This document shows positions 14,702 through 24,820 of a stretch of DNA of 64,000 bases, one piece after another; position 1 is the first letter of the stretch; every line of letters starts with the position of its first letter. The notes under the pieces are model-generated. The model did not search any database. It was not told where the DNA came from and saw only the letters and a program-made list of their open reading frames with translations. The position numbers and the translations under genes are program-made. Source of the DNA: Gammaproteobacteria bacterium (lineage in GTDB: Bacteria; Pseudomonadota; Gammaproteobacteria; DRLM01); assembly GCA_023266095.1 (NCBI GenBank), contig JAHFRV010000001.1, forward strand, positions 64,110 through 128,109, read 5' to 3'.

Positions 14702-14915
14702 TTCAACGCATCAACAAGATCAGAGAGTGGTACGCCCGCTGGGCTTCCGCTCTATGATCTTATAAAGGAAGCTCTGAATAATTCCATTCTGGAATTCTCA
14801 GATGGCCGCGCCGTCGCCAGACTCAGGTCGTCTCCCACCCTCCCCTTAAACTGCGATAAAACATAATCGAAGCATGACGAGGCTGCTCAACCAAGCGGCA
14901 GGCCGAATCGTACAT

Positions 14916-14949
14916 AAAAAAAACCGGAGGTACATTGCTGTACCTCCGG
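14916..14949 (-). terminator. Rho-independent terminator downstream of the 921-aa lipoprotein gene (CCGGAGGTACA stem, TTGC loop, U-run on the minus strand)
   Basis: Perfect 11-bp stem; A8 run on plus strand gives T8 after the hairpin on the minus strand. Confidence 0.55.
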
Positions 14950-14988
14950 CCAAGGGGAGAGACACATCCGTGTCACTCCTAGGTTGGA

Positions 14989-22059: not shown

Positions 22060-22065
22060 GCGGGT

Positions 22066-24684
22066 TCAAACTGGCGATACACTAGGGGGCCATAGAGCCC
22101 CCTTTCTTTTACTTGATCGCCATCCCCGCCGCCAGCGCCAGACCGCCGTGACCGCGAGCAACAATACCAGCACCGGACTCGCGCCGCCGCCGCTACCGAC
22201 GGTCAGGATCGTTTCCTCGGTATCGCTGTTGTTGTTGGGGTTGGGATCCGGTTGGCGGGTGCGTACGATGCCGGCTGTGACGTTCTGCGTACCCCCGGTG
22301 TTGCCACGCAGCTCCAGCGCCAGCTGCGTGTTGCCGCCGGCGGCGATCTCGCCTATCTCGCAGACCACCGCGCCGTTATCGAAGCGACACGCCCCTTGCA
22401 CCGGGGTCGCCGACACGAAGTTGAAGGCCGCGGGAATCTCGCTGCGCAAAGTCAGGCCGCTGGCGGCGTCGGGGCCGTTGTTGCTGACGGTGATGTCATA
22501 AATTACCGTGCTGCCGGACGACGCGGGATCGAGGCGATCATCGATATTCACCGCCACATCCGCCGACCGCGCGATATCTTCCAAAACCGCGAGGAAGCCA
22601 TCGCCGTTGCCGGCCGCGCGGGTCTGCACGGCGTCCACGGCCGGAAAGTCCGTCGAACTGGTCGAGCCGGCCACAGACAACTTGCCCAGGTTATTGATGG
22701 CCACGCCCGCGGCGCTGTCATCGCCGCTGCCGCCCAGATATGTGGACCAGTCCAATTGCGTGGCCGTGGCGTTGAGCCGGCTGACGAAGGCGTCTTTGCT
22801 GCCGAAACGAGAAAACTGCAAGGGCTGGTTCAAGGGAAAATCCGCCGACAGACTCTCGCCCGCAACAACCAATCCGCCGTCAGCGGCGCGGACGATGCCG
22901 TAGGCCTGATCGAGATCGCTGCCGCCGAGAAAGGTGGAATAGATCAGACTGGTGCCGGCGGCATTGAGCTTGGCGGCGAAGGCGTCGCCGCGTCCGCCGC
23001 CGAAAGCAGTTTGAAATGCGCCCGCTGTCACCGGCAAATTATTCGATACCGTGACGCCCGCGATATACATATTGTCGTCGCCGTCCAGCGCGAGGGTGTA
23101 GGCGCGGTCCCAGCTGTTGCCGCCGAAATAACTGGAATACCGCATGACATCGCCGTTGGCGCTGAGCCGGCTGATGAAGCCATCTTCCGGAAAGCCCTGA
23201 AAAGTGGATTGCAGATTGCTGGGCGAGATCGGGAACACCACCGCCGACGCCGTGCCGCCCGCGACTACCACTTCACCGATGCTGGTGAGAGCGATGGCCG
23301 AGATGGAATCCAGATCGGTGCCGCCCCAATAAGTCGAGAACACCGCGCTGGCACCGTCGGCGCTCAACTCGGTGACGAAGCCGTCGGCTTTGTACACACC
23401 GTCATTGGCCAACCCGGCGATGACCGGCTGCACCACGCCTGCCGTCACCGGAAAATCGGCCGAGGTCGTGCCGCCCGCCAGATAAGCTGCGCCGCCTGCG
23501 CCCAAAGTGACCGCCCGCGCCGAATCCAGCGCCGCGCCGCCGAGATAGGTGGCGTACACCAGCGCCGCGCCATCGGCACTGAGTTTGACGGCGAAAGCGT
23601 CGCCGCCTCCCGCGTTAGTCGCTTGTTTAGGATTCTGGGTAGGGAAGTTGCTGGAGTCGGTATCGCCGACTACATACGCCGCGCCACTGGCATCCGCCGC
23701 CACCGCGAAGGCGCGGTCGGTGCCGGCGCCGCCCAGATAAGTGACGTACACCAGCTCACCCGCCGCATTGAATTTGGCGACAAAGGCATCGGTGCCGCCG
23801 CCGTTCGCGCCTTGCAGCGCGGCGCTCACCGGAAAATTAGCGGAAGCGGTTTGACCGGTGAGATAGACATTGCCGTTGGTATCCACCGCCACGCCGCTGC
23901 TCTGTTCAGCACCGTCGCCGCCCAGATAACTGCCGTACACCAACACCGGATCAATGATCAACGGCCGGCTGTGATCGTAATCACCCAGCCAAAAACCCAC
24001 CTCATTATTATCAGATTGCACGCGGTAACCGCCGGCTATCTCGCGCCGGCCGGTCAGGCCGTCCTGATAGATCACCGGTTTATCGAGCAGCAGACTGCCG
24101 TCGCCGGTTTCCAGCCGCAGCTCGCCGCCCTCAGTCAAAGACACCCGTCGTGCACCTTCCGCTTTCAGGCGTATCACTTGCGGATCGGCGCCCGGCGCGA
24201 TCCGCCAGTCAAACTCCAAACGGCCGTCACGTCCGTAATACACCAGGTCGATGCCGGGATACACCGCGCGATATTCCACCCGACCATAAGCGCTGACATC
24301 GCGCCGCCAGCGGCCGTGATCGGCGCCGAGAAAATAATGGCGGGCGCCGGGCAGCCGCGTGTCCGCCGCGCCGGTGGCGGCGGGATCGGCGCCCAGCCAG
24401 CGCAGGCGCAACGGCGTGCCCCCCTCTTTAAAACCGACCACTGCCTCGGCGGGCGTCAACAACAAACTATAATCGGGGGCGCGGGCCAAGAATTCCGCGC
24501 CGACCGCGGTTTGATCGGCACGCGGCTCGAAGGACAGCGGCAATCGGCTAATGGCGGCGACGTGCGGCGGCGTGGATGCAGGGGAAGATGAAACCGGCAT
24601 CTTCGTCGAATAAACCAGTGCCCCCACTACCACGGCACACGCCATTCCGCTCATCCACCACGCTGTATTCGCCGTCGTTTGCAT
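22066..24684 (-). CDS. Secreted SBBP beta-propeller-repeat protein with DUF11/CARDB-like domain and C-terminal Gly-rich/TM/Arg-rich tail
   Basis: 872 aa; repeated ...YLGGxGxDxAxAVAxDxxGNVYVTGxTxSxNFP... modules; C-terminus GSGGGASPVLVLLLAVTAVWRWRRG. Confidence 0.7.
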   Translation of the reverse strand: MQTTANTAWWMSGMACAVVVGALVYSTKMPVSSSPASTPPHVAAISRLPLSFEPRADQTAVGAEFLARAPDYSLLLTPAEAVVGFKEGGTPLRLRWLGADPAATGAADTRLPGARHYFLGADHGRWRRDVSAYGRVEYRAVYPGIDLVYYGRDGRLEFDWRIAPGADPQVIRLKAEGARRVSLTEGGELRLETGDGSLLLDKPVIYQDGLTGRREIAGGYRVQSDNNEVGFWLGDYDHSRPLIIDPVLVYGSYLGGDGAEQSSGVAVDTNGNVYLTGQTASANFPVSAALQGANGGGTDAFVAKFNAAGELVYVTYLGGAGTDRAFAVAADASGAAYVVGDTDSSNFPTQNPKQATNAGGGDAFAVKLSADGAALVYATYLGGAALDSARAVTLGAGGAAYLAGGTTSADFPVTAGVVQPVIAGLANDGVYKADGFVTELSADGASAVFSTYWGGTDLDSISAIALTSIGEVVVAGGTASAVVFPISPSNLQSTFQGFPEDGFISRLSANGDVMRYSSYFGGNSWDRAYTLALDGDDNMYIAGVTVSNNLPVTAGAFQTAFGGGRGDAFAAKLNAAGTSLIYSTFLGGSDLDQAYGIVRAADGGLVVAGESLSADFPLNQPLQFSRFGSKDAFVSRLNATATQLDWSTYLGGSGDDSAAGVAINNLGKLSVAGSTSSTDFPAVDAVQTRAAGNGDGFLAVLEDIARSADVAVNIDDRLDPASSGSTVIYDITVSNNGPDAASGLTLRSEIPAAFNFVSATPVQGACRFDNGAVVCEIGEIAAGGNTQLALELRGNTGGTQNVTAGIVRTRQPDPNPNNNSDTEETILTVGSGGGASPVLVLLLAVTAVWRWRRGWRSSKRKGALWPPSVSPV
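22085..22110. terminator. Hairpin GGGGGC-N6-GCCCCC followed by a T-rich run after nirK (shared with the convergent SBBP gene)
   Basis: Seen in sequence immediately after the nirK stop. Confidence 0.45.
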
Positions 24685-24820
24685 GTGATCCCCAACTTGT
24701 CGTGTGACCGCAATTCACTTGGATTCTAGCACGGCCCTGCCGCCGGCCGCGCCGAGACAGCGCGGCGCGCTTTGCGGTATCCTTTGCCACCCTAACACAC
24801 CACCATTTCGAGGCAGCTGT

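Follow-up and report, generated by a model that had tools for sequence, protein, structure and literature searches.

A 4.16-kb ncgABC-nirK block nested between resident surface-protein genes in the purH-purD gap of an uncultured gammaproteobacterium

Introduction

The purine biosynthesis genes purH and purD are neighbors in Escherichia coli. In the window analyzed here, a 64,000-nucleotide stretch from an uncultured gammaproteobacterium (assembly GCA_023266095.1, contig JAHFRV010000001.1, positions 64,110 to 128,109; ENA metagenome accession ERZ27280116), about 10 kb of other genes lie between them: a lipoprotein gene, an operon resembling the ncgABC-nirK cluster of Nitrosomonas europaea, and a gene for a surface protein with SBBP repeats. 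Did this material arrive as one insertion, and what would it do for its host? A sequence-only reading of the window had proposed a single accessory insertion of about 10 kb that splits purH from purD. We consider it likely that the locus is instead a nested one, in which a variable block carrying an ncgABC-nirK nitrite and nitric oxide (NO) module under NsrR-type control sits between two older genes.

In N. europaea, ncgABC (NE0925-7) is clustered with nirK (NE0924) (PMC10781756, PMC5080386, PMC6967387). The literature on this organism attributes nitrite tolerance to NirK together with ncgABC and describes nirK as harmful in ncgABC mutants (PMC5080386), and NcgABC is believed to scavenge the NO made by NirK (PMC10781756).

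Results

Open reading frame (ORF) listing, profile searches, and gene calls placed the purH-purD interval at exactly 14702-24820. The left boundary gene is purH (13133-14701, plus strand; TIGR00355, 808 bits). The right boundary gene is purD (24821-26107, plus strand; TIGR00877, 597 bits), and since its true start is the ATG at 24821, the gap has exactly these limits. The proposed separation of about 10 kb was therefore accurate (10.1 kb between 14701 and 24821), and ORF listing and profile searches found every element that the sequence-only reading had described, at the positions it had given. From left to right, the gap holds a minus-strand lipoprotein gene, 1.2 kb without a called gene (17755-18968), four plus-strand genes, and a minus-strand SBBP gene. 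The two flanking products are present as that reading had them, a lipoprotein of 921 amino acids (aa) and an SBBP protein with an ORF of 872 aa, which gene callers shorten to 859 aa. The guanine-plus-cytosine (GC) content is 0.55-0.58 over 14.5-19 kb compared to 0.62-0.65 in the flanks; the operon itself, at 0.60-0.62, is near the flanks.

We found relatives of the locus through purH and lipoprotein searches and then read their contigs, all of which share the gene order accBC-prmA-DUF3426-dusB-fis-purH. The assemblies behind L045, L046, and L047 are ERZ1292636, ERZ25039510, and GCA_947259075.1. The ncgABC-nirK cluster is present in the window and in L047 (purH 87% identical), which has the same layout as the window, cluster included; of nine related lineages, seven lack it (L045, L046, L048, L050, L052, L056, and L058). 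The contents of the gap in these relatives vary. In L048 and L049 (purH 83%) and in L056 (lipoprotein 76%), the lipoprotein gene, the SBBP gene, and purD follow one another without the cluster, so that L048 reads purH-lipoprotein-SBBP-purD. L045 (purH 89%) has genes for a KaiC-like ATPase and a hybrid kinase, then the lipoprotein and SBBP genes, which are directly adjacent in L045 as they are in L056. L046 (purH 89%) has the same ATPase and kinase genes, then a deleted copy of the lipoprotein gene together with a DDE transposase, the SBBP gene, and purD. Neither L046 nor L052 (purH 86%; SBBP gene, then purD) has an intact lipoprotein gene beside its SBBP gene. In L050 (purH 80%), an unrelated 762-aa gene stands in the lipoprotein gene's place ahead of the SBBP gene and purD, and in L058 (lipoprotein 67%) a FadL-like porin gene lies between the SBBP and lipoprotein genes.

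Three of these additions have their own coordinates. The KaiC-like ATPase and the PAS-HisKA-receiver hybrid kinase are encoded between purH and the lipoprotein gene at 12352-15792 in L045 and at 12066-15508 in L046. A DUF815 ATPase gene and the DDE transposase gene occupy 15590-17732 of L046, inside the largely deleted lipoprotein gene. The FadL/Toluene_X-like outer-membrane protein of L058 is encoded at 3552-4856.

These comparisons bear directly on the idea that the lipoprotein gene, the operon, and the SBBP gene form one accessory island of 10.1 kb inserted into an ancestral purHD pair. The textbook adjacency of purH and purD in E. coli and the GC dip over 14.5-19 kb both fit such an island, which we nevertheless judge very unlikely and reject for this clade, where relatives without the cluster share the outer genes. 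Six relatives have contigs that extend to purD (L046, L047, L048, L050, L052, and L056), and every one of them has the SBBP gene in the purH-purD gap. In L045, L047, L048, L056, and L058, the lipoprotein gene adjoins the SBBP gene, and of all these relatives only L047 has the operon. Homology between the window and L045 or L046 continues across both outer genes, its only breaks being at 17966 and 22125. Accessory status, which the sequence-only reading had assigned to the entire insert, thus holds for the operon and fails for the lipoprotein and SBBP genes, and the adjacency of purH and purD that it took as normal holds for E. coli and not for this lineage. Because six relatives carry the SBBP gene and five carry the adjoining lipoprotein gene, these two genes are long established at this site in the clade. 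The purH-purD gap itself reads as a long-standing variable region, with two old, divergent surface-protein genes and a 4.16-kb block nested between them.

The variable block spans 17967-22125 and holds a gene for a 93-aa membrane protein plus the whole ncgABC-nirK unit. When the window was compared with L045 and L046, its two closest relatives, by blastn, homology ended at 17966 and restarted at 22125-22127, and the block's place was taken by 188 bp in L045 and 378 bp in L046. The left breakpoint is the last base of a perfect palindrome (17951-17966, described below), and the right breakpoint falls among the final ~20 codons of the SBBP reading frame. We detected no direct or inverted repeats bracketing the block; the repeats found in 14600-24900 were internal SBBP repeats and pairs at chance level. 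No integrase, transposase, or recombinase was present among the called genes. A tRNA scan and an Rfam gathering scan of the whole window found nothing, and therefore the 1.2-kb stretch ahead of the operon contains no tRNA attachment site or known RNA. The block accordingly shows none of the features by which a mobile genomic island is recognized: a recombinase, tRNA or attachment-site repeats, or a compositional break.

The 1.2-kb stretch contains, in addition to the operon promoter and operator, the uncalled gene for the 93-aa protein (18185-18466, minus strand), which has three predicted membrane helices. The reading frame itself runs over 18185-18616 on the minus strand, and we assign the gene to 18185-18466 because homologues match only the last 93 residues. 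A phmmer search of 1.84 billion representative proteins returned 21 matches (best E 1e-28, 63% identity) with a typical length of 92-97 aa. Comparison of 17755-18968 with all loci by tblastx and blastn gave no match past 17966, so the region upstream of the operon is lineage specific. The 93-aa gene had no tblastx match in L047 or in any other ncg locus and is for that reason not a regular part of the module. Its family has no Pfam model; on the contig of one homologue, the gene precedes a DUF2059 gene.

The four operon genes are tightly packed, as had been proposed from their overlapping stops and starts: ncgB shares 14 nt with the end of ncgA and 4 nt (ATGA) with the start of ncgC, and a spacer of 31 nt separates ncgC from nirK. 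The identity of the operon as ncgABC-nirK was likewise confirmed, since the best solved relative of the fourth protein is the NirK of N. europaea (PDB 4kns) and the first matches the N. europaea blue copper oxidase (PDB 3g5w). The fourth gene, nirK (21115-22059, plus strand), encodes a 314-aa copper nitrite reductase of the N. europaea type with a visible N-terminal Sec signal peptide and two cupredoxin domains (Pfam Cu-oxidase_3, Cu-oxidase_2, and Cupredoxin_1). Its match to 4kns has an E value of 1e-109 and 59% identity and spans residues 26-314; the next group in PDB is the Geobacillus NirK (~4e-49), followed by classical NirKs (~1e-26).

All ten copper-ligand and catalytic positions are present in this protein. 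In an alignment of 44 homologues that includes 4kns, the type 1 (T1) copper ligands H83, C123, H131, and M136 are invariant, as are the type 2 (T2) ligands H88, H122, and H282 together with D86, H230, and I232. The roles of these residues (T1 and T2 ligands, catalytic Asp D86 and His H230, and gating Ile I232) follow the NirK literature. On the NCBIfam equivalog model TIGR02376, the protein scored 170 bits, below the cutoff of 296.3. We read this score as divergence of the clade rather than as another function; the model was evidently built on the classical clade, and the closest solved relative by far is the characterized N. europaea NirK.

The alternative that the fourth gene encodes a laccase-like two-domain multicopper oxidase, so that the cluster would oxidize metals or phenolics, draws on this low score, on the generic Cu-oxidase domains that are all Pfam reports, and on mgLAC, which is closely related to the product of the first gene and has laccase activity according to its PDB name. 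All 60 PDB matches listed for the fourth protein, led by 4kns, are NirK enzymes. The protein lacks the HxH and HCH motifs of a trinuclear copper cluster, and it has the NirK-specific catalytic Asp and His as well as the T2 histidines. We therefore rejected the laccase-like assignment, whose probability we regard as negligible, and the fourth protein is, as far as its residues can tell, a real NirK.

The first gene, ncgA (18969-20045, plus strand), encodes a 358-aa two-domain multicopper oxidase with an RR pair in its signal peptide, the copper motifs HTIHWHG, WYHCH...H...M, HSIHTHGH, and HDH, and the Pfam domains Cu-oxidase_3, Cu-oxidase_2, and Cu-oxidase. Its best match was the "metagenome laccase" mgLAC (PDB 2zwn; E 1.9e-143, 61.5% identity over 327 residues). 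The match to 3g5w (E 3e-128) spans residues 24-342, and laccases proper reached only ~1e-38. The second gene, ncgB (20032-20718, plus strand), encodes a 228-aa diheme cytochrome c with a signal peptide, the domains Cytochrome_CBB3 and Cytochrom_C, and heme motifs at residues 31 (CASCH) and 156 (CLACH). The third, ncgC (20715-21083, plus strand), encodes a 122-aa monoheme cytochrome c with a signal peptide, a Cytochrome_CBB3 domain, and a heme motif at residue 37 (CVQCH); its best PDB match is a weak resemblance to a diheme redox-partner cytochrome (6h5l_B, E 3.5e-11). The ratio of nonsynonymous to synonymous divergence (dN/dS) between the window and L047 is 0.10 for ncgA, 0.19 for nirK, and 0.10-0.24 over the four genes, values that indicate purifying selection on all four. 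The mgLAC enzyme is closer to the window NcgA than the N. europaea oxidase is. It probably derives from an uncultured gammaproteobacterium in which its gene heads an ncgABC-nirK operon.

The operon appears to be a self-contained transcription unit, in which a promoter and an NsrR-type operator precede the four genes and a terminator follows them. A predicted sigma-70-type promoter lies at 18814-18842 on the plus strand (TTGACA, 17 nt, TATCTT; 10 of 12 positions) and is the best match within 14600-24900; its L047 counterpart is TTGACA-17-TATCTA. The candidate operator, AAGATGCATTTACTATATATCTT, occupies 18855-18877 as an imperfect palindrome of 11-1-11 bases, starting 12 bases past the -10 hexamer and 92 bp ahead of ncgA. 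It matches 18 of 22 positions of the NsrR consensus, the next best site in the 64 kb matches 15, and none of 5,000 shuffles reached 18. A predicted intrinsic terminator follows nirK at 22084-22110, AGGGGGCC-ATAG-AGCCCCCT and then TTCTTTT, and was the top plus-strand terminator in the scan. It is kept in L047, where its counterpart GGGGGCCCGATCGGGCCCCCTTTCATTT is again a GC-rich hairpin with a T-run, and the promoter and operator of L047 have the same layout as those of the window.

How widespread is this unit? A NirK query against 185,579 species-representative genomes returned 42 loci, almost all of them from uncultured Gammaproteobacteria, including bins labeled Methylococcales, Chromatiales, and Piscirickettsiaceae. 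All four genes occur in 39 loci, 36 of the 42 with the order ncgA-ncgB-ncgC-nirK and 3 with nirK-ncgB-ncgC-ncgA. Because the first order recurs in 36 of 42 independent loci, the four-gene arrangement is no chance event. NcgB and NcgC homologues are kept in 39-40 of the 42 loci, and ncgB holds the equivalent position in 39. None of the 42 loci is flanked by purH, purD, the lipoprotein gene, or the SBBP gene, and we found no orthologous housekeeping genes common to the flanks of the NirK-bearing loci and the window. When all flanking ORFs were clustered, the sole recurrent neighbor was an Rrf2-family regulator (11 loci). NsrR-like boxes lie 30-190 bp before the first gene in most of the 42 loci. 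The three loci with permuted order (L039, L040, and L041) come from a complete uncultured gammaproteobacterial chromosome, a metagenome-assembled genome (MAG), and a Piscirickettsiaceae MAG; each has a divergent nsrR-like gene upstream and a strong palindrome, e.g., AAGATTCACCTAAAATGAATCTT, 33-34 bp before nirK.

We then asked whether the window and L047 owe the block to one gain or to two. The genes dusB (11755-12741) and fis (12755-13048) lie ahead of purH in the same order in all relatives, and the combined tree of dusB, fis, and purH is ((window,(L045,L046)),L047),L048. We regard a single gain with later loss in L045/L046 as the likelier history. The block would have been gained a single time, by the ancestor that the window, L045, L046, and L047 lineages share, probably by recombination rather than with a mobile element, and would later have been lost on the L045/L046 branch. 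Parsimony on this tree gives one gain plus one loss the same cost as two gains, so it serves equally well the rather unlikely alternative that the window and L047 lineages captured the cluster independently at a spacer that is a recombination hotspot. The presence of the FadL-like gene at this spacer in L058 agrees with independent capture.

The gene trees are divided on this point. In the NcgA tree, the window and L047 are sisters, which argues against independent capture, whereas in the neighbor-joining tree of NirK L047 is not beside the window, and the window NirK is as close to that of L007 (82% identity) as to that of L047 (77%). The missing NirK pairing could reflect recombination inside the cluster or independent acquisition. 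Synonymous divergence (dS) from L047 is 0.96-1.43 for the cluster genes, which is above that of purH and dusB (0.50-0.59), as independent capture would have it, and overlaps that of flanking genes outside the housekeeping set (lipoprotein, SBBP, fis, and DUF3426; 0.85-1.22), as a shared gain would have it. The 1 kb upstream of the operon differs between the window and L047, the 93-aa gene being in the window only, while the promoter, operator, and terminator layout is common to both. The empty sites and junctions had diverged too far for a multiple alignment to reveal a deletion scar, and the short junction comparison alone was informative: the first 59 nt inside the left breakpoint are alike only in the window and L047 (z 3.5) and in L045 and L046 (z 3.3), and the first of these likenesses argues for the single gain.

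A further idea extends to the whole clade of groundwater and soil Gammaproteobacteria. The SBBP-lipoprotein spacer might be a dedicated site of cassette exchange, where self-contained modules for the periplasm or outer membrane are swapped by homologous recombination without mobile machinery; we hold this to be unlikely. The spacer has so far been seen with ncgABC-nirK, with the FadL-like porin gene, or with nothing. If it were such a site, ncgABC-nirK would be a general, horizontally traded kit for NO and nitrite that non-nitrifiers use beside nitrifiers, and no nitrifier specialty.

The two resident genes have features of their own. The lipoprotein (14989-17754, minus strand) has the lipobox LTAC|GGG, and a terminator follows its gene at 14922-14951 on the minus strand. 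It had no match in Pfam or NCBIfam, and all of its 319 homologues are named hypothetical. The gene holds the same position in L045, L047, L048, and L056. The family, of ~900 aa, is well conserved: among 45 members the mean column identity is 46%, and many Trp, Gly, and Cys positions are invariant. Its members come from many gammaproteobacterial MAGs, Ca. Manganitrophus, and Nitrospiria. A confident AlphaFold model (predicted local distance difference test score [pLDDT] 81.5, predicted template modeling score [pTM] 0.74) is mostly beta and found no credible fold match in PDB.

A perfect CRP-type palindrome, TGTGATGGCTGTCACA, lies at 17951-17966, ~200 bp upstream of the lipoprotein start codon. 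It is the sole match in 64 kb compared to 0.03 expected, and it is kept in L045, L046, and L047. Since it is kept upstream of the lipoprotein gene in relatives, we assign it to that gene, which may be under cyclic AMP-CRP (CRP/Vfr-type) control. We considered this box as a regulator of the operon and rejected it: relatives without the operon keep it, and it lies ~860 bp from the operon promoter.

The SBBP protein (22066-24684, minus strand) has a DUF7948 domain, SBBP repeats, and a DUF11 domain. Because its gene and the lipoprotein gene repeatedly adjoin, the lipoprotein and this SBBP/DUF7948 protein are suggested to be a functional pair. In all relatives, the SBBP tail reads GGGA-hydrophobic-RRRR with 0-8 residues after it and resembles a GlyGly-CTERM sorting signal. 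The window ORF has another 19 residues after the RR, reads through the nirK terminator, and stops 6 nt from the nirK stop; the variable block includes its final ~20 codons (22066-22125). This extension is due to a ~120-bp deletion relative to L047, and the sorting signal of the window protein may be impaired.

Two observations concern the surroundings. A 35-bp element, GGAAGCTCTGAATAATTCCATTCTGGAATTCTCAG, in the purH-lipoprotein spacer (14767-14801) contains the palindrome AATTCCA-TTC-TGGAATT and is present in a single copy in the window; the empty site of L046 has a second occurrence at 18199-18233, in inverted orientation and with 91% identity. To the right of the gap, a sua5/yrdC-like gene (26107-26670) follows purD, and a type VI secretion cluster of ~26 kb (26700-53000) fills the space between it and hemF (54188-55180). 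The cluster includes genes for ClpV (27947-30697), TssG/TssF (31566-34450), TssC (39907-41406), TssM (45231-48737), and TssK (50865-52349). In L048, L050, and L052, hemF comes directly after sua5, making the type VI cluster a second, much larger variable insert beside the purH-purD gap.

Discussion

The explanation that we favor gives the nested block a role in nitrite tolerance and in the handling of nitrogen oxides (NOx), not in purine metabolism. An Rrf2/NsrR-type repressor encoded elsewhere in the genome would probably bind the operator just past the -10 hexamer and, to go by the operator and by the linkage of nsrR to the module in other genomes, would leave it as nitrite or NO rises. All four products, whose signal peptides are visible in the sequences, would be exported to the periplasm. 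There, NirK, a trimer whose T1 and T2 copper sites are complete, would reduce nitrite to NO, an activity suggested by the N. europaea enzyme. The monoheme and diheme cytochromes c could pass electrons from the respiratory chain to NirK. NcgA, together with the cytochromes, could handle NO or electron overflow and so make NirK beneficial rather than toxic, as N. europaea genetics would suggest.

Several points weigh against this explanation, beyond the sub-cutoff score of NirK and the equal parsimony cost, the NirK tree, and the unlike upstream regions discussed above. The right half of the operator matches only 7 of 11 consensus positions. There is no nsrR homologue within the 64-kb window, which makes the repressor an assumption; the search for nsrR homologues started from E. 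coli NsrR, and its matches were then checked against NCBIfam. Among the Rrf2-family neighbors in other loci, NsrR was the best NCBIfam match for four of the five tested, with scores above the Rrf2 superfamily cutoff and below the NsrR equivalog cutoff. The likeness of the window NcgB and NcgC to the N. europaea cytochromes lies in heme counts, sizes, and positions only. In N. europaea itself, the biochemical role of NcgA, NcgB, and NcgC is reported as not fully resolved (PMC6967387). Finally, besides the operon, the 64-kb window holds no NO reductase gene or other nitrogen cycle gene.

The last point leads to another account of the same genes, in which the module mainly consumes NO, with NirK as an NO oxidoreductase whose electrons the cytochromes accept, and guards the cell against the NO of nitrifiers or denitrifiers nearby rather than providing tolerance to its own nitrite. 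We see this as possible and yet less probable than a role in nitrite tolerance. In Nitrobacter winogradskyi, ncgABC/nirK expression goes with NOx consumption, and NO production by its NirK is unconfirmed (PMC5080386); the N. europaea NirK is described as dispensable for NO production (PMC6967387). An NsrR-type operator would suit an NO-responsive detoxification regulon. The lack of an NO reductase gene also fits but says little for a window of just 64 kb. With D86, H230, I232, and three T2 histidines, the protein has a standard nitrite reductase active site, which speaks for the nitrite-reducing role, and the direction of catalysis cannot be read from a sequence.

Discussion of the ncgABC-nirK cluster has usually centered on Nitrosomonas and Nitrobacter, and here it occurs in a gammaproteobacterium that does not look like a nitrifier. 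The same unit, often with an nsrR gene or operator, is found in 39 other genomes, nearly all uncultured and mostly labeled Gammaproteobacteria, methanotroph-like MAGs included, and its neighborhood is different each time. This supports a portable module for nitrite and NO handling, and a nirK of this kind in metagenome counts need not mean denitrification or nitrification. The orphan mgLAC gains a genomic home. The locus is also an example of nested variability, in which an apparent 10-kb island resolves into an old two-gene resident and a younger 4-kb block. A specialist would not be surprised by these results, which make no open question newly testable beyond what N. europaea offers.

Comparison with known systems

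The closest known system is the ncgABC-nirK cluster of N. europaea and N. eutropha (NE0927-NE0924) with its NsrR repressor, which has the same four protein types in the same order as the window; 4kns and 3g5w are among the closest solved relatives of the window proteins. The candidate NsrR-type operator in the promoter region of the window operon would also fit this system, and the presumed role in nitrite and NO tolerance is alike (PMC5080386, PMC10781756). The two differ in host and setting. The window comes from an uncultured gammaproteobacterium of 60-65% GC with no sign of ammonia oxidation in 64 kb, its cluster has no adjoining nsrR gene, its NirK is only 59% identical, and the cluster sits in a variable spacer between purH and purD.

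Clusters with ncgABC-like genes beside nirK have also been described from organisms that do not oxidize ammonia, namely Nitrobacter winogradskyi (Nwi2648-2653) and a Zetaproteobacteria NirK/NcgABC contig (PMC5080386, PMC3603346), so the module was already known beyond the ammonia oxidizers. These hosts belong to the Alpha- and Zetaproteobacteria. Two oxidase genes are present on the Zetaproteobacteria contig, the Nitrobacter cluster is regulated in connection with quorum sensing, and neither cluster is reported in a purH-purD gap. The mgLAC enzyme (2zwn) is of the same trimeric two-domain copper oxidase type as the window NcgA; it is an isolated, laccase-active enzyme without genomic context, in contrast to its window homologue, the first gene of a nirK operon.

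The classical NirKs of Achromobacter and Alcaligenes and the NirK of Geobacillus thermodenitrificans share the two cupredoxin domains, the T1 and T2 ligands, and the catalytic Asp and His with the window enzyme and are much more distant from it (E 1e-26 for classical NirK and 4e-49 for Geobacillus). The T1 loop of the window NirK, C-x7-H-x4-M, is one residue shorter than the classical loop and like that of the Geobacillus and N. europaea enzymes. Classical NirK receives electrons from azurin or pseudoazurin, and its gene stands beside nirV or nor, not beside an oxidase and two cytochromes.

With ncgABC-nirK known from N. europaea, N. eutropha, Nitrobacter, and a Zetaproteobacteria contig (PMC4940428, PMC5080386, PMC3603346), the operon described here is a clear further example of a known gene module and not a new type of system. 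New in this case are a further host lineage, a precise presence/absence polymorphism of 4.16 kb, an NsrR-type operator without a neighboring nsrR gene, and the common occurrence of the module among uncultured Gammaproteobacteria, where its genomic surroundings vary widely.

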